Shown: positions 273 to 55,327 of the stretch, in pieces
Layout of the letters: each line of letters begins with the position of its first letter
Position numbering within the stretch: the stretch's first letter is position 1
Made by a program: the position numbers and the translations under genes
From: Clostridia bacterium
Lineage (GTDB): Bacteria > Bacillota > Clostridia > RUG12999
DNA length: 64,000 nt
Direction: 5' to 3'
Assembly: GCA_045633565.1 (NCBI GenBank)
Contig: JAZQYO010000026.1
Span: forward strand, 915 to 64,914
Notes under the pieces: generated by a model
What the model was told of the DNA's origin: nothing
Database searches by the model: none
Seen by the model: the letters and a program-made list of their open reading frames with translations, nothing else

Positions 273-805
273 ATTCCCCTCCAAAAAAAGGACTTGCTTT
301 TGCAAGTCCTACATCCTGAAAATTGATTTCACAATACCGCAAAGACATTTTGGCATTTTAATAACAACGACCTTCATATCATAACTCCTTTCCACTATTT
401 GCAAAGCAGACTAAACCCTGCCCAGATAAGCAGTATACCAAGCAAGAAAACAAGCCAGGAGGAGGGCATGCAGACAGTTATAATTACGCTCACACCCACT
501 CCTATAATAAGTATCCCCGAAGCTCCCCTGCGTCGTTTCATCTCCTCACCCGTCCTTTGTTATTATATTATTCAGACAACAGGATTTTGGTTAATAATAA
601 AGGTTGTCGAAAATTGGCGAACGAAATAAGGTATAAAAGTATTGCATTTTTTCAATTGTGGTGCTATAATAAAGATGCTAAACCAATTCAATATTTTTTG
701 ACATTGCGACATGTTTTTTTACTTATGGTAAAAATGCATGCTCTATTTCAACATGTCGTTTATGTCATATGAAATTGGTTTAGCAACCGGAGCTATGCGT
801 TTTTC

Positions 806-836
806 GTGCGTGGCTTTATGTCACGCACTTTTTTTA
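806..836 (+). terminator. Rho-independent terminator (GTGCGTG..CACGCAC + T7)
   Basis: Perfect 7-bp GC-rich stem gtgcgtg / cacgcac with 9-nt loop followed by ttttttt on the + strand; lies in a 700-bp region without long ORFs. Confidence 0.5.
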
Positions 837-898: not shown

Positions 899-1012
899 AT
901 GGACAACTATAAAGAAATGTATTTGGAACTTTTTAATGTAATTACCGATACTATAACAAAACTAAAAGAAGCACAGAAAAAAGTTGAAGAAATGTATACA
1001 AATCAAGAATAA
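899..1012 (+). CDS. Small hypothetical protein, 37 aa (MDNYKEMYLELFNVITDTITKLKEAQKKVEEMYTNQE)
   Basis: ATG at 899 preceded by AGGAGACGA RBS-like sequence 5 nt upstream; ends at TAA 1010-1012 just before the A-run/hairpin at 1014-1027. Below the ORF-track size cut-off; coding status unproven. Confidence 0.3.
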   Translation: MDNYKEMYLELFNVITDTITKLKEAQKKVEEMYTNQE

Positions 1013-1019
1013 TAAAAAA

Positions 1020-1317
1020 GCACATTCTCCGGCGGTTGGTCTTAGGGAGAAATCGGTTCCCAAACCATATTTTCAGTTTATACTACATCAAAAAGCATGG
1101 TAATACGCCAGTATTACCATGCTTTTAATCTTTGTATAATTCTAAAAATCTGTATTTGGGAACTGCTTTGCATCACAAAAATCATTATTTTGTGTGCAGA
1201 ATTAGGAAAAACCATGCAAAAATCCTGTCGGATTTTAAATGGTTTTGACAACATTCTGTGCCAAAATATTGGTTTTTTGACGAATAATCCCCAACACCAA
1301 CCGCCGTCTGAATGTGC
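1020..1317 (+). repeat. Dispersed ~277-bp element (core 1030-1306) with perfect 11-bp terminal inverted repeats CGGCGGTTGGT/ACCAACCGCCG, sitting inside the loop of a bidirectional terminator hairpin (GCACATTC ... GAATGTGC flanked by A6 / T5); copy 1 of 2
   Basis: About 85% identical by eye to 54312-54610. Internal perfect hairpin 1095-1122 (GCATGGTAATAC gcca GTATTACCATGC + TTTT). Promoter-like TTGACA and TGtATAAT motifs inside. Ends abut the stop codons of convergent genes. Confidence 0.6.
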
Positions 1318-3265: not shown

Positions 3266-3540
3266 AAGCCGTACACCTTAATATCGAATTATCCCGGTTG
3301 CCCGTATCATACTTTGCGACTCAAAACCGGCATCCCTGCGGCACATAGTACAAAACCGCTTATCGCTGCTCGGTTCCCCGCCTGACGAGGTTCACGGCGC
3401 ACTATTGCGCAGGACCGATTTATCAACATCAACAAAGTATGACCGACTGCATCAGAATAACCCTCAAATAAGGAATTCCCCCTTGCTATAGCGGATTGCA
3501 AGTACAGGGCACCGCTAACTCCCCGGATAGTACGGCCAAT
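3266..3540 (-). ncRNA. ffs: Signal recognition particle RNA, long Bacillus-type with Alu domain
   Basis: Minus-strand sequence GGGGAGUUAGCGGUGCCCUGUACUUGCAAUCCGCUAUAGCAAGGG ... GUCCUGCGCAAUAGUG ... GUCAGGCGGGGAACCGAGCAGC ... GUGCCGCAGGG matches the Alu-domain and domain-IV motifs of Firmicutes scRNA. The 5'/3' ends (GCCGUAC / GUACGGC) can pair. Position directly upstream of dnaX is the conserved Firmicutes arrangement. The boundary is approximate, about 10 nt either way. Confidence 0.85.
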
Positions 3541-4202: not shown

Positions 4203-4487
4203 TTGAAAAATAAGTCATTTTTTTCACAAATTATGCTATTAGTTATTATATCTTTAATTTCTGTAGTATTGACTGTTGGCATTGCCCTTTTGGTAGGTTC
4301 TTCTAATACAACATTGTTTGATTTTAAAAACCTTAATTTTTCCAATATGATACCTGTTTTAATATTAGGTGGTTTCATCAGTTGTGTTGTTGTTGGTATA
4401 ACGGTTCTTTTTGTTGCTAGGTCAATATTTTATAAAGTTAAAAATTATTTATCAGAAGAAGATAAAAATGGAGGAGACAAAAAATGA
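4203..4487 (+). CDS. Small membrane protein (2 predicted TM helices)
   Basis: TTG start at 4203 with AGGAGG RBS 7 nt upstream; two hydrophobic segments (LLVIISLISVVLTVGIALLV and IPVLILGGFISCVVVGITVLFV). Confidence 0.5.
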   Translation: MKNKSFFSQIMLLVIISLISVVLTVGIALLVGSSNTTLFDFKNLNFSNMIPVLILGGFISCVVVGITVLFVARSIFYKVKNYLSEEDKNGGDKK

Positions 4488-4927
4488 AATGTACTAATCA
4501 CCCAGAAATTGATGCACAAGGAATGTGTGCATACTGTGGCAAACCTTTTTGTAAAGACTGCCTTGTAGAAGTAAAAGGAAGAATGTATTGCAAAAATGAC
4601 CTTGGTAATGTTCTTGATGAAGCAAAACAATCTTCAAGTGGTCAACCAACAATTAACATTACCAATAGCAACGAGAGTGTTAATACCAACACCCATGTTA
4701 ATGGTGGTTTTTACGGTGGTCCTAGGAAGAGTAAAATGGTTGCTTTAATTTTATGTATTATTGGTTTCTTTGGTATTGGCGGTCTTCACAGAATGTATGT
4801 AGGTAAAGTAGGTAGTGGTGTTGTTCATTTCCTTACATATGGCATTTGTGCTATTGGGACAATAATTGACTTAATCTCAATTTTGTCTGGTGGATTTAGA
4901 GATAGTTATGGACAACCTTTGGTATAA
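4484..4927 (+). CDS. Zinc-ribbon plus TM2-domain membrane protein
   Basis: N-terminal CxxC...CxxC (CTNHPEIDAQGMCAYCGKPFCKDC...YCKNDL). C-terminal MVALILCIIGFFGIGGLHRMYVGKVGSGVVHFLTYGICAIG matches the TM2 domain pattern. RBS GGAGGAG; start codon overlaps the upstream stop (ATGA). Confidence 0.65.
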   Translation: MKCTNHPEIDAQGMCAYCGKPFCKDCLVEVKGRMYCKNDLGNVLDEAKQSSSGQPTINITNSNESVNTNTHVNGGFYGGPRKSKMVALILCIIGFFGIGGLHRMYVGKVGSGVVHFLTYGICAIGTIIDLISILSGGFRDSYGQPLV

Positions 4928-22876: not shown

Positions 22877-22882
22877 TATTAT

Positions 22883-23212
22883 GAGTATCCCTGTAAGCCG
22901 GGTTCTGTTTTTCAGACAATTATCTATCTACGCCTGCCATTGCTGACAGGCTTTAGCCATATAAGGGGAAACGTCGGGCAAACTTAACTTCCCCAATGTT
23001 GCTCCAGGTGGGGTTTACAGCACGATACTGTCTCCAATACCGTGGGTGAGCTCTTACCTCGCCTTTCCACCCTTACCGCAAAAATGCGGCGGTATATCTC
23101 TGTTGCACTATCCTTAGAGTCGCCTCCACCGGACGTTATCCGGCACCCTTGCCCTGCGGAGCCCGGACTTTCCTCACGCACCTTCTGGTGCCCGCAATTG
23201 TCCGGAATACTC
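22883..23212 (-). ncRNA. rnpB: RNase P RNA, bacterial type A-like
   Basis: Minus-strand sequence contains GAGGAAAGUCCGGGCUCCGCAGGGCA, GGUGCCGG.UAACG.CCGG, AGUGCAACAGAGA, GGUAAGGGUGGAAAGG, GGUAAGAGCUCACC and ACAGAACCCGGCUUA. The P1 ends GAGUAUUCC / GGGAUACUC pair. Track ORFs 22984-23214(-), 23042-23497(+) and 23149-23394(+) overlapping it are spurious. Confidence 0.85.
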
Positions 23213-23219
23213 AAGTTTT

Positions 23220-24838: not shown

Positions 24839-24925
24839 GCGGATGTGGCGGAATTGGCAGACGCGCTAGCTTCAGGTGCTAGTGAAAGCAATTTCATGCA
24901 GGTTCAAGTCCTGTCATCCGCACCA
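24839..24925 (+). tRNA. tRNA-Leu (anticodon CAG), class II with long variable arm, CCA encoded
   Basis: Acceptor GCGGATG/CATCCGC, anticodon stem CTAGC/GCTAG with loop TTCAGGT, variable arm TGAAAGCAATTTCATGC, T arm AGGTTCAAGTCCT, 3' ACCA. Confidence 0.9.
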
Positions 24926-38807: not shown

Positions 38808-38936
38808 ATATAATCACACTCTTTAAATTTTGTATTTAATTTAGTAAAAGAAGCTCGACAATGGCAAGCTTGGCTCTCAAAGCTCGCCACGTCTTACTTA
38901 CATTATAATGTTGCTATGTAACTTTTTGGGTAGTGA

Positions 38937-39188
38937 TTATTCGCCAACTACTGTTAAGCCAACAAGTACTACTTTAATCCAAGTTGCAACAGGGCAGAAA
39001 ATAGCAATCAAAGTAGCTACTTTAGAAAAAGCATTTGCATATTTGATTGATAATGCTAACCACTTAGGCATCTTCTTGCCAGTGTGCTGATATACGATAT
39101 TGATGATACCGAACTGCATCATTGCACAGAGAAGAGCTGTTGCAGCCAAAGACACATTAGTTACGCTTCTTTTAATTGCGTTTGTCAT
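38937..39188 (-). CDS. 83-aa hydrophobic cationic peptide, paralog B (bacteriocin-like or small 2-TM protein)
   Basis: MTNAIKRSVTNVSLAATALLCAMMQFGIINIVYQHTGKKMPKWLALSIKYANAFSKVATLIAIFCPVATWIKVVLVGLTVVGE; RBS GGAGG 8 nt upstream; about 85% identical to the tandem neighbour. Confidence 0.55.
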   Translation of the reverse strand: MTNAIKRSVTNVSLAATALLCAMMQFGIINIVYQHTGKKMPKWLALSIKYANAFSKVATLIAIFCPVATWIKVVLVGLTVVGE

Positions 39189-39223
39189 GATCGTTTCCTC
39201 CGAACTTCAAACCGTATTAGGTA

Positions 39224-39475
39224 TTAGTCGCCAACAAGTGTTAAGCCAACAAGTACTACTTTAATCCAAGTTGCAACAGGGCAGAAAAGTGCAATTAAGG
39301 TTGAAACCTTAGAAAGAGCACTTGCGTACTTGATTGACAATGCTAACCACTTAGGCATCTTCTTACCTGTGTGCTGATACACGATATTGATGATGCCGAA
39401 CTGCATCATTGTGCAGAGAAGAGCTGTTGCAGCCATAGAAAGGTTTGTTGCGCTTCTTTTAATTGCATTTGTCAT
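39224..39475 (-). CDS. 83-aa hydrophobic cationic peptide, paralog A
   Basis: The proper start is ATG 39475 (MTNAIKRSATNLSMAATALLCTMMQ...) with GGAGG RBS; the track's 39520 start adds a non-conserved 15-aa extension that has no RBS. Confidence 0.55.
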   Translation of the reverse strand: MTNAIKRSATNLSMAATALLCTMMQFGIINIVYQHTGKKMPKWLALSIKYASALSKVSTLIALFCPVATWIKVVLVGLTLVGD

Positions 39476-39543
39476 GTTTGTTTCCTCCATTTTGAAAATG
39501 ATATATATTTTACCTGACATCTATGATGCCAGGGAGAGCCCAC

Positions 39544-42282: not shown

Positions 42283-42315
42283 AATAGTTTTCACCACATA
42301 ATTGTGATTATGTGG
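42283..42315. promoter_or_regulatory. Perfect palindrome TTTTCACCACATAATTGTGATTATGTGGTGAAAA about 50 bp upstream of the TetR gene; candidate operator
   Basis: 11-bp arms with a 4-nt centre. A related inverted version (CCACATAATcacaATTATGTGG) occurs at 42524-42556. Confidence 0.4.
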
Positions 42316-42458
42316 TGAAAACAGAACAACAAGTGTCATTTGTTTGCAAATTTAGGCACGAAAACAAGACCGATGTTAGTCAATAAAGTTTCATCGGTCA
42401 ATTTTTGATGTCTATTTTTGTGCATATCGGAGATTTTTTGTAATTTATACTAAAATTA

Positions 42459-42490: not shown

Positions 42491-42557
42491 TTATGTATTT
42501 TTAATGGTTGTTTTTATAAGTGTTCCACATAATCACAATTATGTGGTCTTTTTTATT

Positions 42558-46690: not shown

Positions 46691-47836
46691 TTACTCTTTT
46701 TTGATTCTGTTATTTACTTTTTGATATAAATTATCTCTTTCCATATCTCTTTGATACTCCTCAAAAGTATATTTTTTCTTATAATCGTATCGGGTTTTAA
46801 GTTCTTTTGCTAATTCTTTTGCTGCCTCTGCAAAATCTTCGCTTATTTTTCCTCTTGAAGCTTCGGTGCGGATGCAGGCACAACGCTTGGTATAAATATC
46901 CTTTATCGGATCATTTCCTGCAAGCTCTTTTCTTCCTACCATAGCCGCATACTGTCTGCAAGTGAGTTCTTTTCCGTCTGTTATATCAAGCGGAGCAAAT
47001 CCCGTACAGTATTTTTGCTTACGCATGCTTTCCATAAGGAAATATGTTTCGCACACTTCACATTGACGGGGATAATGTCCAAATGAAAGACCTTCAAAAA
47101 AGTCTGTAAGTATAAAGCTGTAAAAAGTTCTGAAATGAAGCCTTTTTACAATAATTTTCTTTTTGCCTTTTGTTATAGTTGCATATTCCGCTGCAATACC
47201 ATACCTTTCAACGCCGAATGTTTCATATGCGTGGGTTATAAGTTTGTTCTCGTTGTAATGCTCGGATAAATCCTCTAATCCCCATACAAACTCGGTTAGT
47301 TTTTCAAAAGCCTTTATCATATCGTTTCCGATATTTTCATAAAACTGCAAAAGTGCTTTTACACGGGAAAGTAGTTTGTTTGCTTCTTTGGAGAACTCTG
47401 CATATCCTTTGGGAAGTATGTCAAGGGACATTGCACCCTTATCTTTTAAAGAAACCTTCGCTCTCTGCTGATAGTAATTTAAAATATAATCCGCATTTTC
47501 TTTTGTAAAAGTTTCTGCTATCAGTTTTTTCTCAGCTTCAATATCTAAATACTGAAACGGACTAATACACGGAAGAATATCTAGGATATTTAATATTTCT
47601 TTTCCGGCTCTTACAAAATCGTAATCGTTTATATACCCTTTTTCCATTTGGGAGGATAGCATCCAATTATCATAACGCATTGATGCTATTCTTGCTCCGT
47701 TGTCATTTTCTTCATATTGATTAAGAAAATCTACCGCAAAACTGCCTATAAGAAACTTGTTACTTTTGATATATACGAACTTATCTCTGTAATCGGCAGT
47801 AAAAAATTTAATTTTATCAGGCATCTTTATCACCAC
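46691..47836 (-). CDS. Hypothetical protein with C-terminal multi-Cys zinc-ribbon region, 381 aa
   Basis: QCEVCETYF...YCTGF...LTCRQY...KRCACIR cysteine pairs; first gene of a three-gene minus-strand operon with the sigma factor and kinase. Confidence 0.5.
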   Translation of the reverse strand: MVIKMPDKIKFFTADYRDKFVYIKSNKFLIGSFAVDFLNQYEENDNGARIASMRYDNWMLSSQMEKGYINDYDFVRAGKEILNILDILPCISPFQYLDIEAEKKLIAETFTKENADYILNYYQQRAKVSLKDKGAMSLDILPKGYAEFSKEANKLLSRVKALLQFYENIGNDMIKAFEKLTEFVWGLEDLSEHYNENKLITHAYETFGVERYGIAAEYATITKGKKKIIVKRLHFRTFYSFILTDFFEGLSFGHYPRQCEVCETYFLMESMRKQKYCTGFAPLDITDGKELTCRQYAAMVGRKELAGNDPIKDIYTKRCACIRTEASRGKISEDFAEAAKELAKELKTRYDYKKKYTFEEYQRDMERDNLYQKVNNRIKKE

Positions 47837-48090
47837 CCAAGAAAATTATAACATATTTTGTTACGAAATACAAGATGTATAGATTTAATTGCATTGAAAA
47901 CCGCACAAATACAAGGGTTTTGATGTGTTGCGTTTTTTATTTTTAATGTGTTATGCAATACTTTGCCTATTTGAAAATCCTCACATTCTATATAGTAGAA
48001 AGGGCAAAACAAGCCATTTCTTAATACGCACGCTTCGCCGTCTGATTTTTCAGGCGGCTTTTTTCGTGCAACGAAAGTGAGGTGAAACTG

Positions 48091-48930
48091 ATGAACAGAA
48101 TGTTCAAAATCAACGAGGCGGAACGCTTCAAATTTGTCCGTGTGCCAAAGGTATTATTTGAAGCTCGGTACAAAAATTTATCTACCGATGCAAAAATTCT
48201 TTACAGCTTATTGTTTGAGCGTATGGAATTGTCAAGAAAAAACGGATGGCACGATGATGATGGAAGTGTTTACATCTATTTTACATTGGAGGAGGTGTGC
48301 GAGGTTTTAGGATGTGGACACGACAAGGCAACAAAGCTGTTTTGTGAGCTTGAAAGCTATGCACTTTTACGCCGTAAAAAACAAGGCTTCGGTAAGCCTG
48401 CAAAGCTCTATGTACTTAAATTTTATGAAGAGTGCGAAAATACCGCAGTCTTGAATGCGGATTTGCCGCAGTTTGATGTGCTGAATAACGGAAGAACAGA
48501 GTACGGTTTTTCCGCAGGTAATAATACTGATATAAATAATAATTATATTAGTAATACCAATCTATCTATCAGCAGATACGATGTCGATGCGACAGAACAA
48601 AGAATAAAAGAGCAACTTGAATATGACATCTTAATAACAAAAGTTGGCAAAGAAACGGCAGAGGAAATTGTTCTGCTTATTACCGATGTTATATGCGGCA
48701 CAAGCGAAACCGTGCGAATAGGCAAAAGTGAATTTCCAAGAGAGGTAGTTCGCTCACGGCTTTTCAAATTAAACTGTGAGCATATCGAATATGTTGTTGA
48801 TTGTATGAAAGAGAATACAACAAATGTCAGAAATATTCGCTCATATCTGCTTACCGCCTTGTATAACGCACCGGCAACCATAGACAACCACTATCGGGCA
48901 AAGGTTAATCACGACCTTTACGGAAAGTAA
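48091..48930 (+). CDS. Replication initiator RepA N-terminal-domain protein (Firmicutes plasmid/ICE type)
   Basis: VPKVLFEARYKNLSTDAKILYSLLFERMELSRKNGWHDDDGSVYIYFTLEEVCEVLGCGHDKATKLFCELESYALLRRKKQG matches the RepA_N family pattern. ATG 48091 with GAGGTGA RBS; the track start 48082 is an upstream GTG. Confidence 0.75.
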   Translation: MNRMFKINEAERFKFVRVPKVLFEARYKNLSTDAKILYSLLFERMELSRKNGWHDDDGSVYIYFTLEEVCEVLGCGHDKATKLFCELESYALLRRKKQGFGKPAKLYVLKFYEECENTAVLNADLPQFDVLNNGRTEYGFSAGNNTDINNNYISNTNLSISRYDVDATEQRIKEQLEYDILITKVGKETAEEIVLLITDVICGTSETVRIGKSEFPREVVRSRLFKLNCEHIEYVVDCMKENTTNVRNIRSYLLTALYNAPATIDNHYRAKVNHDLYGK

Positions 48931-48955
48931 ACTAAAAATACGGAGGATTTTTATT

Positions 48956-49255
48956 ATGAGAATTTTATCAAGAAATCAGTTTGCAATGTCAAACTTCAAC
49001 AGAGACGGTTATGAGTTCAATGAGATTGAAGGGACCTTCAAAGGAACTATGAGATTTGCAGTATGGGGCAGAAAATGCAACGCCATTGCTTATGTTGAAT
49101 TGGATGATGGTAGAAAAATTATGTGTACTGCTTTTCAGCAACCCGATGACTATTTAGGAATACCCGAAATAGACTTCGGAACAAGAGTGGAAGTTGTCTA
49201 TGAAAGGGGCAAACGAGGCAACATTCGCCTTAAATCAATACAAAGGGCAGAATAA
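48956..49255 (+). CDS. Hypothetical protein, 99 aa
   Basis: RBS ACGGAGGA; typical small ICE accessory ORF. Confidence 0.45.
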   Translation: MRILSRNQFAMSNFNRDGYEFNEIEGTFKGTMRFAVWGRKCNAIAYVELDDGRKIMCTAFQQPDDYLGIPEIDFGTRVEVVYERGKRGNIRLKSIQRAE

Positions 49256-49397
49256 CTGTCCGGTACTGTAACGAGCAGGGAACTTGTATTGCACAAATTC
49301 CATAAAAGGCGGGACTTCCTTTCGGAAATCCTGCCTTTTGTCTTTGGGGAGTTCCCCAATCCCCCGAAAATTACATTTTAAATAGGAGTTGATTTTA

Positions 49398-49676
49398 ATG
49401 AAAGAAAGAGCAAATTCAATTTATGTGCGTGTTACCGAAAAAGAGAAAATACGCATAAAAAACAAAGCCGACAAATGCGGCTTGACACTTTCGGAATATT
49501 TAAGAAAACGAGCTTTAGGCTATTCTCCAAAAGCTCTCTTGCCCGAAAGCTTTTATGAGTTTTCAGGTAAGCTCAGCGATTTATATGAACAGATTGATAA
49601 GGGTTACAGTGCTGAACTTGAAGAAAGAATTTTATCTCTGATTGATGAAATTCAATTAAAGCTACTCGCACCATAA
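49398..49676 (+). CDS. mobC: MobC-like relaxosome accessory protein (ribbon-helix-helix)
   Basis: RANSIYVRVTEKEKIRIKNKADKCGLTLSEYLRKRALG matches the MobC family pattern; directly upstream of the relaxase. Confidence 0.7.
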   Translation: MKERANSIYVRVTEKEKIRIKNKADKCGLTLSEYLRKRALGYSPKALLPESFYEFSGKLSDLYEQIDKGYSAELEERILSLIDEIQLKLLAP

Positions 49677-49696
49677 AGAAAGGAGATTGATGAATA

Positions 49697-51070
49697 ATGG
49701 CAACTACGGGATTTTGGCCTATTAAAGGCTCATTAAGGGACGTTATAAAATATGCAGACAATCCCGACAAGACCACTAATCCAAAGTATCTTGATGATGA
49801 CTTGGCTTCCGTACTCAAATACGCAGAAAATGATGATAAAACGGATATGAAAATGTTTGTAAGCGGTATCAACTGCTTGGCGGTACGAGCTTACGAGCAA
49901 ATGATGATAACAAAACGCTTTTACGGAAAAACGGTCGGAAATGTGGCATATCACGGCTATCAAAGTTTTAAGTCAGGGGGAGTCACACCTAAAGAAGCTC
50001 ACGACATAGGACTTGAAACTGCACGGCGTATGTGGGGTAAGGATTATGAGATTGTTGTTACAACACATCTAAACACCGACAACATACATAACCACATTGT
50101 CATAAATTCTGTATCTTTCAAAACTGGAATTAAATTTGAAAACCATATTTCAGACCATAGACGGTTAAGAGAAATATCCGATGAGATATGTAAGGAATAC
50201 GGGAAGTCGGTTCTTGAAAATGCTGACTTTTACAACGGTGACAGAAATGCATATTGGGTACATAAGCACGGTGGTAAAACCCGTAGAGATATTCTCCGTG
50301 AGGATGTTGACGATGCAATAAATAATTCTGCAAGCTATGTGGAGTTTGTCGCTCTTATGAAGCATAAAGGATATGTCTTTTCAAGGTCTGAGGCAACAGA
50401 CCATCCATCTGTTAAAGCTCCTACTTGGGAAAAAGCAATCCGTTTTGACCGATTGGGTAACGAGTATAAAAAGGACAGGATTTTAGAAAGAATCAGGCAA
50501 ACGGGCAATCGGGCTCATTTTAATCAGTTCAGCGAACCATATAAGAAAACAAGAGCTAAATATCGTCAAACACCACTTAAAGAACTTGAGTATCAACTGC
50601 GGCGTGTAAAATATATGGATACACTTGAAGCTCTGTTTTATTTGTTTATGGAACTATTAAAGCCAAGCACCCCTACACCGAAATACACGCCGCCGTTATC
50701 TCCGGAGCTCCGGCAGGAATTAAGAAAACTCGAACAATATCAAAAGCAATTCAGGCTCTTGCACGATGAAAATATTCATACCGTGCCGGAGCTTGAAGCA
50801 TTTATAGGAAAATTATCAATGCAGATATCCGAGCTTGAGGAAGAACGTTCAAAGACGGATAACAAACGAAGACGAGCTAAAACCGTTGAGGATAAAGATA
50901 TGTATTTGTCCGAAATCAGAGGTATATCCGCACAGATAAAGCCTATAAGAGATAAGCTCAAAACCGCAAAAGCCACTTTGGAAACTGTACCGAAAGTGCA
51001 ACGCCTACTTGATGTTGAACGGGAAATGGAAAGAAAAATTGAAAAGAGAAATAAGGAGAAATCACTATGA
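49697..51070 (+). CDS. Relaxase/mobilization nuclease (MobA/MobL family)
   Basis: N-terminal relaxase domain with the HxH motif (HLNTDNIHNHIVINSV) and C-terminal coiled-coil; 457 aa. Confidence 0.85.
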   Translation: MATTGFWPIKGSLRDVIKYADNPDKTTNPKYLDDDLASVLKYAENDDKTDMKMFVSGINCLAVRAYEQMMITKRFYGKTVGNVAYHGYQSFKSGGVTPKEAHDIGLETARRMWGKDYEIVVTTHLNTDNIHNHIVINSVSFKTGIKFENHISDHRRLREISDEICKEYGKSVLENADFYNGDRNAYWVHKHGGKTRRDILREDVDDAINNSASYVEFVALMKHKGYVFSRSEATDHPSVKAPTWEKAIRFDRLGNEYKKDRILERIRQTGNRAHFNQFSEPYKKTRAKYRQTPLKELEYQLRRVKYMDTLEALFYLFMELLKPSTPTPKYTPPLSPELRQELRKLEQYQKQFRLLHDENIHTVPELEAFIGKLSMQISELEEERSKTDNKRRRAKTVEDKDMYLSEIRGISAQIKPIRDKLKTAKATLETVPKVQRLLDVEREMERKIEKRNKEKSL

Positions 51071-51921
51071 GAAATGTGCAAAAACTTGATGTAACAAAAT
51101 TAAAGGAATTTGAAAATCATCCCTACAAGGTAAAACACGATGATGAAATGGAAATGCTGATTGAAAGCATAAAGGAACACGGGATTTTATCTCCTATCAT
51201 CGTCAGACCACTTGAAAATGATGAATACGAAATAATCTCAGGGCACAGAAGGTTATTTGCAAGCAAACGGGCAGGACTTACGGAAGTTCCTGCTCTTGTT
51301 GTTGAATTGGATAGAGATAACGCCGCAATAGCACTTGTTGACAGTAATCTGCACAGAGATAACATTTCACTAAGCGAAAAAGCCTTTGCCTACAAATTAA
51401 AGATGGAAGCTATGAGCAGACAAGGACATAGGACAGATTTAACTTCGGGACAACTTGTCCCGAAGTCTGATGACAACAGAACATCTGCTGAAATCGGTGA
51501 GCCATACGGTGAAAGCTATAAAACCGTGCAACGCTACATACGGCTTACTTATCTACATCCTAAACTTTTGGAATATGTGGATGAAGGGCGAATTGCTTTC
51601 ACTCCGGCAGTAGAACTTTCATATCTAAATGACATTGAACAACAAGACCTCATACAAACAATTGAGAGCGAGGATTGCACCCCTTCATTATCTCAGGCGG
51701 TTCGTATGAAAAAGTTAAGTCAGCAAGGCTTGCTTGATGACGATAAAATCTTTGAGATTATGTCGGAGGAAAAAGCAAATCAAAAGGAACGGATTAAAAT
51801 TCCGACTGAGCGTGTAAGGAAATACTTTCCCGAAAGCTATACTAAAGCACAAATCGAAGATGCTATTGTCAAGCTCTGCGAAGCCAATTTCAAACGCAAG
51901 CAAAAGCAGCAGGAACGATAA
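51067..51921 (+). CDS. ParB/Srx-like nuclease-domain protein
   Basis: ILSPIIVRPLENDEYEIISGHRRLFASKRAGLTEVPALVV is the ParB N-terminal box; ATGA overlap with the relaxase stop. Confidence 0.8.
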   Translation: MRNVQKLDVTKLKEFENHPYKVKHDDEMEMLIESIKEHGILSPIIVRPLENDEYEIISGHRRLFASKRAGLTEVPALVVELDRDNAAIALVDSNLHRDNISLSEKAFAYKLKMEAMSRQGHRTDLTSGQLVPKSDDNRTSAEIGEPYGESYKTVQRYIRLTYLHPKLLEYVDEGRIAFTPAVELSYLNDIEQQDLIQTIESEDCTPSLSQAVRMKKLSQQGLLDDDKIFEIMSEEKANQKERIKIPTERVRKYFPESYTKAQIEDAIVKLCEANFKRKQKQQER

Positions 51922-51956
51922 ATTAAATAAAATCTTGATGGAAGGAGAATGAAACA

Positions 51957-52115
51957 GTGAGTAACAAGAGCAATGTAATTCAAATTCCACAGCACGAGAT
52001 TGATGCACTTGCTCGCTGTTTATTGCCTGACCTTATGGCTTTTTACGAAAGCGAAGAAGGGCAAAAAGAATTTGAACAATGGAAAAAGGACCTTGAAAAC
52101 AAGGAAATTGAATAA
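51957..52115 (+). CDS. Small hypothetical protein, 52 aa, GTG start
   Basis: RBS GGAGAA 7 nt upstream; followed by a GC hairpin plus T-run (52121-52155). Confidence 0.3.
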   Translation: MSNKSNVIQIPQHEIDALARCLLPDLMAFYESEEGQKEFEQWKKDLENKEIE

Positions 52116-52120
52116 TTTTA

Positions 52121-52155
52121 CTAACGGGCGTCGCTGATTGCGATGCCCGTTTTGC
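52121..52155 (+). terminator. Terminator (AACGGGCgtcgctgattgcgatGCCCGTTTTG)
   Basis: Seen directly. Confidence 0.5.
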
Positions 52156-52222
52156 ATCACACATTTGTACAATTAAAAAGTTAATGATATAAAAGGTATA
52201 TACCACGAAAGGAAGTGAATTT

Positions 52223-53737
52223 ATGAATGCGGTAATATATGCACGATATTCTTCGGACAATCAGCGTGAAGAATCTATCGAAGGTCAGCTCAGGGAATGT
52301 AAAGAATTTGCCGAAGCGAATGATATGATTATAGTTGATACTTACATAGACAGAGCGTTATCAGCAAAAACTGACAATCGCCCTGAATTTCAGCGAATGA
52401 TAAAAGAAAGTGCAAAGGGAGCTTTCGAATTAGTTATAGTTTGGAAATTAGACCGCTTTGCCCGTAACCGATATGACTCTGCACATTATAAAGCGGTATT
52501 GCAGAAAAACGGCGTTAAAGTTGTTTCTGCAACAGAGAAAATCTCACAAACTCCCGAAGGCATTTTGCTTGAATCTTTGCTTGAAGGTATGGCAGAATAC
52601 TACTCAGCAGAATTGGCAGAAAAGGTTACACGAGGACTTACCGAAAATGCCTTAAAATGCAAATACAACGGCGGAACCTTGCCAATCGGGTATGCGATTG
52701 ACGAAAATCAATTCTTTGTTATAGATCCTCTTACCGCACCTGCAGTATTGGATGCTTTCAAGCATTATGCAGAAGGTGCAACAATGCAGCAAATTACCGA
52801 TGAATTAAATTTAAGAGGTGTTCGTACTAAAAAGAACACTCGGATTACATTAAATACAGTAACCCGAATGTTACACAACAGAAGATATATTGGCGAATAC
52901 AAATACAGCGATATAACTACTCCAAACGGAATACCTCCGATAGTTCCGGTAGATTTATTTGAAAGGGTACAAGATATGATGAAAGCAAACAAAAAGGCTC
53001 CGGCAAAGCATAAAGCAGAAGATGAATATTTACTTACCACAAAACTTTTTTGCGGTAAATGCAAATGTCTTATGGCAGGCGAAAGCGGTACAAGCCATAC
53101 AAAGCACGTTCATCGCTATTATAAGTGTGTCAGCGTAAAATATCACAGAGGATGCGACAAAAAGACGGTTCGCAAGGAATGGATTGAAGATATTGTAATC
53201 TCTTATTTAATGAAGATAATCTTTGATGATGACCTAATGGACAAATTGGCAGATGCACTTCTTATACATCTGCATAAAGAAAATGACACTCTGCCGATTC
53301 TTCAAAAGCAGTTTGCAGAAACTCAAAAAAGTATTGATAATATGCTTAACGCAATTCAGCAGGGTATTTTTACAACCTCAACCAAAGAACGACTTGAAGC
53401 TCTTGAAAGAGAGAAAAGCGAATTATCCGTACAGATAATGAAAGAAGAATTGAGCAGACCTAATCTTACAAAAGAGCAAATACTCTTTTGGATACACAAA
53501 TTCAGAAAACTCAATCCGAAAAAATTGGAGCATCGCAGAAGACTTATAAATAGTTTTCTCAATTCTGTTTACTTATTCGATGACAAAATTATAATTGATT
53601 GTAACTACAAAGACGGCACAGAAACTATTACTTTCGAGGAAATAGAAAATTCTGCCTTGGGTTCGGATTTAACATCACTCGCTGCACCATATCGAAGCAA
53701 AGTCAGCTTTGCTTCGATTTTTTATGGGAAAACATAG
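52223..53737 (+). CDS. Large serine recombinase (resolvase/invertase catalytic domain plus recombinase and zinc-ribbon domains), 504 aa
   Basis: N-terminus AVIYARYSSDNQREESIEGQLREC...DRFARN with catalytic Ser; C-terminal Cys-rich and coiled-coil domains, as in TnpX/TndX/SpoIVCA-type recombinases. Confidence 0.9.
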   Translation: MNAVIYARYSSDNQREESIEGQLRECKEFAEANDMIIVDTYIDRALSAKTDNRPEFQRMIKESAKGAFELVIVWKLDRFARNRYDSAHYKAVLQKNGVKVVSATEKISQTPEGILLESLLEGMAEYYSAELAEKVTRGLTENALKCKYNGGTLPIGYAIDENQFFVIDPLTAPAVLDAFKHYAEGATMQQITDELNLRGVRTKKNTRITLNTVTRMLHNRRYIGEYKYSDITTPNGIPPIVPVDLFERVQDMMKANKKAPAKHKAEDEYLLTTKLFCGKCKCLMAGESGTSHTKHVHRYYKCVSVKYHRGCDKKTVRKEWIEDIVISYLMKIIFDDDLMDKLADALLIHLHKENDTLPILQKQFAETQKSIDNMLNAIQQGIFTTSTKERLEALEREKSELSVQIMKEELSRPNLTKEQILFWIHKFRKLNPKKLEHRRRLINSFLNSVYLFDDKIIIDCNYKDGTETITFEEIENSALGSDLTSLAAPYRSKVSFASIFYGKT

Positions 53738-53762: not shown

Positions 53763-54299
53763 ATGAGTAAAAAAGTTCTGGTTTTATCTGGCAGTCCCCG
53801 CATAAATGGTAACTCAGATATTCTATGCGACGAATTTATGAGAGGGGCTATTGAAAATGGCAATGCTGTTGAAAAAATTCGTATTGCTGAAAAAAATATT
53901 GGCTTTTGCAGAGCCTGTTATGCTTGTAAAGATGCCGGCGTCTGTTTAGTCAAAGATGATATGGCAGAAGTTCTGCAGAAGATGATTGATGCTGATATCA
54001 TTGTTCTTGCAAGCCCCATATATTTTTATTCGGTTAATGCTCAGCTCAAGGCATTGATGGACAGAACATTTGCCCGTGGGTTGGAAATAAAAAACAAAGA
54101 GTTTTATTACATAGTAACCGCCGGTGACTCAAGAACCGAATTTTCCTCAACAGCACTTGCATGTTTCCGTGGTTATGCCGACTGTTTTGAAGGCTCCCTG
54201 GAAATGGGCATCATCCGCGGCATGGGCGTGTCCGAAAAAGGTGACGTCAAAAATACCGAGGCAATGACAGAAGCCTATGAAATGGGTAAAAAAGTATAA
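53763..54299 (+). CDS. NADPH-dependent FMN reductase / flavodoxin-like iron-sulfur flavoprotein
   Basis: MSKKVLVLSGSPRINGNS...SPIYFYSVNAQLKALMDR is the flavodoxin-like NADPH-dependent FMN reductase family fold; RBS GGAAGAGGA. Track start 53709 is an upstream extension. Confidence 0.7.
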   Translation: MSKKVLVLSGSPRINGNSDILCDEFMRGAIENGNAVEKIRIAEKNIGFCRACYACKDAGVCLVKDDMAEVLQKMIDADIIVLASPIYFYSVNAQLKALMDRTFARGLEIKNKEFYYIVTAGDSRTEFSSTALACFRGYADCFEGSLEMGIIRGMGVSEKGDVKNTEAMTEAYEMGKKV

Positions 54300-54311
54300 C
54301 CATCACAAAAA

Positions 54312-54610
54312 GCACTTGCAACGGCGGTTGGTCTTAGGGAGAAATCGGTTTCCAGACCATATTTTTAGTTTATACTTCATCAAAAAGCACCGTAATACGC
54401 CAGTATTACGGTGCTTTTAATCTTTGTCTAATTCTAAAAATCTGATTTTGTAAACTGACATTGCATCATAAAAAACATTATTTTGTGTACAGAGTTAGGA
54501 AAAACCTTGCAGAAATCCTGGTGGATTTTAAAAGGTTTTGACAACACTATGTGCCAAAATTATGCTTTTTGGACGATTAATCCCTAACACCAACCGCCGA
54601 ACGCAAGTGC
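54312..54610 (+). repeat. Copy 2 of the about 277-bp TIR element (core 54322-54599) inside a bidirectional terminator hairpin (GCACTTGC ... GCAAGTGC, A5 / T6 flanks)
   Basis: Same 11-bp TIRs as copy 1. The internal hairpin GCACCGTAATAC gcca GTATTACGGTGC shows compensatory substitutions relative to copy 1. TTGACA-17-TATGCT promoter-like motif near the 3' end. Confidence 0.6.
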
Positions 54611-54622
54611 TTTTTTCTGTAG

Positions 54623-55327
54623 TTACACATTTTCAAATGTTCCGGCGACACAGATTTCTTTTTCTTTTGTCTGCATATGCACATAAAATCCGCCGGGAAT
54701 TTCTTTTGTGCACACCTGGAGCTCATCTCCGAGGTATGCCTGTTTTTTATAGAGCAATTTAACATCGGTAAACTGAAAATCAAAGGGCAGTGCATCCATT
54801 AAAAGCTCTGCGCCTTTCTGATTATTAAGATGCCCGTTTGTGTCAATTTCCTTATTTGCTATTTTCACTGTATACTCAGGCACTTCAATTTCAAACAGGG
54901 GCGCTTTTTTATATTCAAAGAATTCATCTTCAAACTGGAAAAATTCATAAGCGTCAAACATCTCAGCAGGAATTCTACCGATTTTATTTTTCCCGGTATC
55001 AAACAAGAACCAGTTTGCAATTGATTTTGCAACAACTTCTCCATTTTGGCGGATAAAACATCCTCTTGCGGAGGTTGTTCCCTTAAGACTTTTAACCGCA
55101 GTTGCAACTTCGACCGGTTCCCCCGTCTTAACCGGTTTTTCAAACCGGGCATTTATCCCCTGCATCAGCCACGCCAAATTCATATTTTTCAGCGTCAGCA
55201 TATCATATCCGCACCGTGCAGAATCTTTGGTCGAAACATCTTGAATCATATCAAGCACCGAGCTTACCTTAATATTCTCAAAATCTTTATAATCACCGTA
55301 TCTCGTTTCATATTTAAAAGTAAACAT
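54623..55327 (-). CDS. Acyl-ACP thioesterase
   Basis: 234 aa, two hot-dog halves; family-typical NGHLNN motif. Confidence 0.75.
   Translation of the reverse strand: MFTFKYETRYGDYKDFENIKVSSVLDMIQDVSTKDSARCGYDMLTLKNMNLAWLMQGINARFEKPVKTGEPVEVATAVKSLKGTTSARGCFIRQNGEVVAKSIANWFLFDTGKNKIGRIPAEMFDAYEFFQFEDEFFEYKKAPLFEIEVPEYTVKIANKEIDTNGHLNNQKGAELLMDALPFDFQFTDVKLLYKKQAYLGDELQVCTKEIPGGFYVHMQTKEKEICVAGTFENV

Follow-up and report, generated by a model that had tools for sequence, protein, structure and literature searches.

In the 64-kb window (i.e., the whole stretch of DNA that was analysed), one element occurs twice. Its two copies share the same orientation and 88% identity, and each was inserted into a bidirectional terminator that already existed, within its 3-nt loop. 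The combination of terminal inverted repeats (TIRs), a 2-bp duplication that varies from site to site, presence/absence polymorphism and the lack of coding capacity makes it probable that the element is a non-autonomous DNA transposon (MITE) belonging to an undescribed family. It is a familiar kind of selfish DNA in uncultured gut-type Clostridia and not a new system.

Element copies and their ends

Copy 2 lies at positions 54322-54599 of the window (+ strand, 278 bp, non-coding; nhmmer E = 7.8e-95) and copy 1 at positions 1030-1306 (+ strand, 277 bp), between an open reading frame (ORF) of 37 aa on the + strand and ybaB on the - strand. Both window copies start with CGGCGGTTGGT and close with ACCAACCGCCG, which form perfect 11-bp TIRs. 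In copy 2, the left TIR (54322-54347, + strand) is perfect over 11 bp at 54322-54332 and continues imperfectly to ~26 nt, and the right TIR (54574-54599, + strand) is perfect at 54589-54599. When the end pattern was searched as a 19-mer with up to three mismatches, the four element ends were the sole matches in the window, with 0.01 expected by chance, and the left 29 nt of the element show no variation among all copies. An alignment of copies 1 and 2 shows 33 differing positions. The element lacks coding capacity, as stops interrupt all six reading frames (6/6) at positions that differ between the copies. With an nhmmer profile of the element, neither the window nor the other loci analysed yielded additional copies, intact or degenerate. 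The identity between the copies and their perfect 11-bp ends bear out the original prediction that the sequence at 54322-54599 is the second copy of a dispersed, TIR-bounded element.

Note that the window also contains other repeats. A 271-nt tandem direct repeat (38931-39488, 88% identical) corresponds to a pair of small paralogous ORFs, arranged in tandem on the minus strand, which encode hydrophobic peptides of ~80-odd aa starting with MTNAIKRS and gave no Rfam match. In addition, a 40-nt inverted repeat (42293-42332 and 42508-42547, 80% complementary), the arms of which contain the palindrome CCACATAATTGTGATTATGTGG, encloses 175 nt in an intergenic region.

Insertion into the loops of host terminators

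Comparison of filled and empty sites established the insertion pattern for both window copies. Copy 2 is located between two convergent genes, encoding an FMN-reductase (53763-54299, + strand) and an acyl-ACP thioesterase (54623-55327, - strand). From left to right, its site consists of the left arm of the host bidirectional terminator (54307-54319), made of an A-run and GCACTTGC (54312-54319), the left target-site duplication AA (54320-54321), the element, the right duplication AA with the third loop nucleotide C (54600-54602), and the right terminator arm (54603-54616), made of GCAAGTGC (54603-54610) and a T-run. The site thus reads GCACTTGC-AA[278 bp]AAC-GCAAGTGC. In the related contig L005, where the gene order is kept, the thioesterase is 86% identical to that of the window and only 41 bp (3477-3517) separate the two genes, the two arms are contiguous and form an uninterrupted hairpin with a 3-nt loop, AAAAAAGCACTTGC-GTT-GCAAGTGCTTTTT. 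Another contig, L009, ends within the hairpin and was left out of the empty/filled comparison, and exact look-ups of the window thioesterase and FMN reductase returned no identical record.

The copy-1 site displays the same organization, with a TC/TC duplication (1028-1029 and 1307-1308) between host arms at 1014-1027 and 1310-1322, and reads GCACATTC-TC[277 bp]TCT-GAATGTGC. Among contigs encoding an identical YbaB, this site is filled in three (L010-L012) and empty in one (L013), in which the sequence is AAAAAAAGCACATTC-TCT-GAATGTGCTTTTTT; the copies of L010 and L011 are identical to window copy 1 at 272 of 277 positions. At both copy 1 (compared with L013) and copy 2 (compared with L005), the difference between the filled and the empty site is the element plus 2 bp. 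For both window copies, the empty sites prove that the element does not include the outer stem, which is the terminator of the host, as originally predicted, and the outer stems of the two copies are indeed different while each is complementary (GCACTTGC/GCAAGTGC for copy 2, GCACATTC/GAATGTGC for copy 1).

It should be noticed that relatives carry the terminator loop of the copy-2 site in opposite orientations, GTT in L005 and AAC in the window. Judged from these sequences, the inverted loop most simply suggests a flip between the stem arms, possibly taking the element along. In more distant relatives (L006 810-1035, L007 2163-2414 and L008 808-1059), a different terminator and a tRNA-like gene come after the thioesterase gene; L007 and L008 diverge from L006 inside this stretch, which suggests an integration there.

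Each copy has its own 2-bp duplication (TC for copy 1, AA for copy 2) and its own empty site, and housekeeping genes and RNAs lie between the copies, which together argue for independent insertions. Indeed, the RNase P RNA (class A, 22878-23213), the large SRP RNA (3269-3535) and a tRNA (24839-24922) are all found between the element copies, so the intervening DNA is core chromosome. We therefore rejected the possibility that the two copies mark the att-site boundaries of a genomic island, given that both are complete elements and that the RNase P RNA, the SRP RNA and dnaX lie between them, and the earlier view of the copies as dispersed repeats rather than att sites holds.

A distinct block, resembling an integrative mobilisable element, occupies positions 46691-53737 of the window. 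It encodes a DUF6076 protein, a RepA_N/DUF6017 replication protein, a MobA/VirD2 relaxase, a ParB-like protein and a large serine recombinase, the gene of which ends just before the FMN-reductase gene. L005 is devoid of this block and has a CNNM/CorC gene in its place.

Further loci and the target rule

Further copies were found by exact-pattern scans (25-26-mers) of 185,579 species genomes and a metagenome collection, which gave only three more loci, outside this species and in other contexts (L001, L002 and L003), the sources of L001 and L002 being labelled ‘Clostridia bacterium’. L001 is a full copy between an acyl-carrier-protein gene and an mgtC-like gene (flanks CCTCTGCATT[..]AATGCAGAGG), L003 is a full copy between pyrR and a homologue of the 37-aa ORF (flanks GAGATGTGA-TT[..]TTG-TCACATCTC), and L002 is an internally deleted copy of 163 bp (4404-4566; flanks GACTTGC-AA[..]AAATC-GCAAGTC). 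What remains of the L002 copy is the left end, the first internal hairpin domain including its terminator hairpin, and the final ~10 nt on the right, with the deletion junction at a short AAAAC(C) repeat, and it is located ~50 bp upstream of an apparently truncated serine recombinase gene. Overall, the family seems to occur rarely and only within a narrow lineage of uncultured Clostridia.

All five independent insertion sites (5/5) are loops of terminators with an A-run, a hairpin and a T-run, the stems of which are unrelated in sequence, and all full-length copies (4/4) are located between convergent genes. Since the five target stems all differ, the target would be recognized by its geometry or by symmetric A/T tracts and not by its sequence. 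Identical dinucleotides are present on both sides of the element at four of the five sites (TC, AA, AA and TT), and at these sites (4/4) the duplicated dinucleotide corresponds to the first two loop nucleotides in the orientation of the element, a regularity that is suggestive, not significant. The exception is L001, which has TT/AA flanks and no duplication. Relatives of this locus (L015 and L017) are empty at the site, but their stems and loops differ, so the ancestral L001 loop cannot be reconstructed. In L001, the flanks ATT (left) and AAT (right) are perfect complements of each other, and this complementarity may result from a later palindrome-templated correction.

As an additional observation on the targets, the 37-aa ORF (MDNYKEMYLELFNV..., no Pfam match; window 899-1012) has its end in the terminator occupied by copy 1, as does the homologous small ORF of L003 (~705-815, minus strand) in the terminator occupied by the L003 copy. 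The gene context of the L003 copy differs from that of window copy 1, and its orientation relative to the small ORF is opposite. That the terminator of this small ORF was hit twice may be a coincidence, or it may be a favoured target.

The 2-bp repeat at both element junctions may also be read in another way, namely that a serine recombinase moves the element and that the apparent duplication is the crossover dinucleotide common to the element and the target. Serine recombinases leave a 2-bp repeat at both junctions. Moreover, the large serine recombinase gene of the window (52223-53737) is ~600 bp from copy 2, and another such gene lies ~50 bp downstream of the L002 copy. However, this mechanism needs identical crossover dinucleotides in both partners, yet the sites differ (TC, AA, TT); the two recombinases share only 27% identity, the one in the window is part of the relaxase/RepA/ParB mobile block, and no recombinase gene adjoins copy 1, L001 or L003. 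We consider this explanation very improbable, and the link with the serine recombinase was rejected on the varying dinucleotides, the 27% identity and the separate relaxase/RepA/ParB block.

The nature of the targets raises a second alternative, in which the element would transpose as a single-stranded DNA hairpin, either of a palindromic type derived from IS200/IS605 or in the manner of integron attC sites, and would insert in exposed loops. The targets are hairpin loops, and the element is widely self-complementary with internal hairpins that are structurally conserved, as this reading would have it. In contrast, HUH transposition yields neither true TIRs nor a variable 2-bp duplication, and there is no shared 4-5-nt motif before the left end, where the flanks are TCTC, GCAA, CATT, GCAA and GATT. 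Transposition of the IS200/IS605 type was thus rejected, as TIRs and a duplication are present and the flank motif is absent. Likewise, an integron-type G/TT junction fits copy 2 but not copy 1, and an integron-like crossover was rejected since it would hold for copy 2 only. Single-strand transposition is therefore an improbable reading of these sites, and insertion of a MITE with a 2-bp duplication remains the preferred one.

Folding and covariation of the element

The element with its flanks folds far better than shuffled sequence on both strands (z = -13.0 and -12.5). In the RNAalifold consensus of the four full-length copies (n = 4), the fold comprises a terminal stem (columns 1-26 with 253-278), domain A, a small hairpin and domain B. 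The two interior hairpins, each of ~100 nt, are domain A (54348-54455, + strand; columns 27-134) and domain B (54470-54570, + strand; columns 149-249), and each contains seven pairs with compensatory changes; the predicted stability of domain B is -32.0 kcal/mol on the + strand and -28.3 kcal/mol on the - strand. Altogether, compensatory changes were found in 14 of the 103 pairs among the four full copies, compared to 5.4±1.6 in shuffles, none of which reached 14 (0/500), and only 0-2 covarying pairs were obtained when the partners were slid, versus 14 in the true alignment. A comparison restricted to copies 1 and 2 gives five compensated pairs (69:90, 70:89, 30:131, 173:226 and 186:212). The changes had been predicted to be compensatory beyond a single hairpin, and three of these five pairs (30:131, 173:226 and 186:212) are indeed located outside the hairpin recognized at that time (69:90 and 70:89).

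The covarying pairs are all located in domains A and B. None (0) lies in the terminal stem, where the few changes disrupt pairing. Variation is also lowest in the terminal stem region (11.5% of columns vs 22-30% inside), and paired columns vary less than unpaired ones (20% vs 36%, p = 0.01). Invariant ends that do not covary, together with a covarying interior, fit with ends constrained by sequence, as for protein binding, and an interior constrained by structure; this division is read from the alignment. Regarding the strand, G-U pairs were found at ~6 independent sites versus 2 for A-C, which are too few sites for choosing a strand, and the folding energy is equal on both strands.

Such a structure could also be that of a chromosomal structured ncRNA gene or 3′-UTR element that was duplicated and is immobile. 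An exceptionally stable fold (z = -13) and covariation are what such a gene would display. However, the exact presence/absence with a 2-bp duplication, the occurrence at three loci and the insertion into unrelated terminators do not agree with an immobile gene, nor do the lack of a conserved promoter and of an Rfam match, and this explanation thus appears extremely improbable. With Rfam 15 at gathering thresholds, the only matches in the whole window were RNase P, SRP and a tRNA, with none for the element, and in a permissive Rfam scan every match was far below the gathering score of its family.

A more serious rival concerns the meaning of the covariation and leaves the element a MITE. The compensatory pairs could be a mutational by-product of intrastrand template switching in quasi-palindromes, with no RNA or terminator function. 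Indeed, both strands fold equally well, the ATT flank of L001 is complementary to AAT at the place where a 2-bp duplication is expected, and the loop inversion between L005 (GTT) and the window (AAC) indicates that palindromes rearrange. On the other hand, uncompensated mismatches occur in 3 of the 18 terminal stem pairs and not in the internal hairpins, although a purely mutational process should treat both alike, and the G-U pairs 167:232 and 168:231 persist on the + strand without being corrected to Watson-Crick pairs. We regard template switching as a rather unlikely source of the compensatory pairs, and a structural constraint on the interior fits these observations.

A predicted internal terminator in the first hairpin domain

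The hairpin at the apex of domain A (54383-54418, + strand; 16-bp stem, 4-nt loop) stands between an A-run on its left and TTTTAATCTTT on its right, and thus resembles a bidirectional intrinsic terminator. Terminator scans scored this hairpin as an intrinsic terminator in both window copies, its predicted stability is -24.4 kcal/mol, and it displays four covarying pairs and no broken pair (0) in the four copies. The apex is therefore a predicted terminator, which most likely restores termination for both convergent genes after their own terminator was split. As the termination of the flanking genes would be replaced, the insertion would be nearly harmless. IS200 has a terminator that blocks read-through, and the apex terminator of the present element may go back to a parent element in which it served against read-through.

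A promoter-like box specific to copy 2

The original prediction of an outward promoter-like box stands in part. The motif (TTGACA-17-TATGCT, 54538-54566, + strand, 33 nt from the right end) is present in copy 2 and matches 10/12 positions, but it is not supported as a feature of the element. Indeed, the -10 hexamer TATGCT is found in copy 2 only and is replaced by ATTGGT or AATGGT in copy 1, L001 and L003, and the -35 hexamer, though conserved, is part of a conserved helix. An outward promoter as a feature of the family was rejected, as the -10 box is not conserved across the four full copies. In addition, the AT-rich DNA of the window contains many matches of 10/12 or better (41 on both strands, i.e., ~0.64 per kb). 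Since the -10 hexamer is specific to copy 2 and such matches are frequent, the box is probably a chance feature of this copy. The motif leaves room for antisense transcription of the thioesterase gene, though at copy 2 only.

Comparison with known elements

Several known systems share part of these properties. The bcr1 repeat (group A bcr, B. cereus group) is MITE-like, ~155 bp in size, flanked by 5-bp direct repeats and variably distributed between strains, and its transcript has a cruciform-like predicted fold with two independent stem-loops kept by compensatory changes (PMC3184786). Compared by description, both are small non-coding mobile repeats of Firmicutes with two stem-loops and compensatory changes; in contrast, bcr1 is shorter (~155 bp), generates 5-bp repeats and is found in the B. 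cereus group only, and no targeting of terminator loops has been reported for it.

IS1272, a member of the IS1182 family, targets stem-loops of varied sequence that are often located just downstream of genes (PMC5678879). Pathway c of the model proposed for this IS, in which the attack occurs at the loops of a cruciform and the loop sequence is duplicated (PMC5678879), matches the insertion pattern of the present element, and both are Firmicute elements with stem-loop targets. However, IS1272, compared here by description, is an autonomous element of 1.9 kb that is reported to delete (‘replace’) its target stem-loop and to generate no duplication, whereas the present element retains the stem-loop, splits it in two and duplicates 2 bp.

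A precise preference for palindromic extragenic targets is shared with IS1397 and ISKpn1, which insert into REP/palindromic units (PMC1525189; PMC3184786). These ISs use one specific repeat family (REP/PU) in Gammaproteobacteria, whereas the targets found here are unrelated, unique terminators and the insert is non-autonomous. Finally, SPRITE is a Firmicute repeat of ~105 bp that is terminator-like, strongly enriched between convergent genes near their 3′ ends and without a known matching IS (PMC3049150). Its ‘inverted repeats’ are only AAAA/TTTT, and neither an empty site nor a duplication has been established for it, whereas the present element has 11-bp repeats, a demonstrated duplication and a terminator carried internally.

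The search for an autonomous parent with the same ends was negative in genome, metagenome, viral, plasmid and phage collections. End-pattern scans of the genome, metagenome and viral collections gave short copies or a chance coding match only, and of the viral contig scans, one was empty and one gave a chance match inside a coding region; note that such exact-match scans could overlook a parent with diverged ends. BLAST of the whole element and of its left end against plasmids and phages found nothing, and neither did a search of a six-frame pseudo-protein of the element against predicted proteins, which sought contigs with spurious ORF calls.

Proposed mechanism and significance

The insertion pattern suggests the following mechanism. 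A transposase acting in trans, probably of the DDE type, would bind the conserved ends and make a 2-bp staggered cut. Its target would be recognized by shape or symmetry, i.e., a hairpin or cruciform with flanking A/T tracts, and the element would insert in the terminator loop and duplicate two loop nucleotides. The interior would be kept as two long hairpins, the first of which has a strong bidirectional terminator at its apex, and this internal terminator would serve both convergent genes once the host terminator is split. In its strongest form, which we put forward tentatively, the element would be a ‘stealth’ transposon, the transposase of which reads the geometry of the terminator and cuts in its 3-5-nt loop, and the own selected terminator of which replaces the disrupted one. 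As far as we found in the literature, the combination of structure-guided safe-site targeting and built-in signal replacement has not been described for a MITE.

In practical terms, the 278-bp units could be mistaken in annotation for small-RNA genes, giant terminators or island boundaries, and as dispersed repeats they may break metagenome assemblies. The pairs of empty and filled sites, which can be set against each other base by base, would provide a clean natural example of a mobile element that chooses its target by DNA shape, here terminator hairpin loops with unrelated sequences. If a transposase is found, the element would be a candidate for the study and use of structure-directed insertion at nearly host-neutral sites, and its covarying internal terminator would be an example of a selfish element reducing the cost that it imposes.
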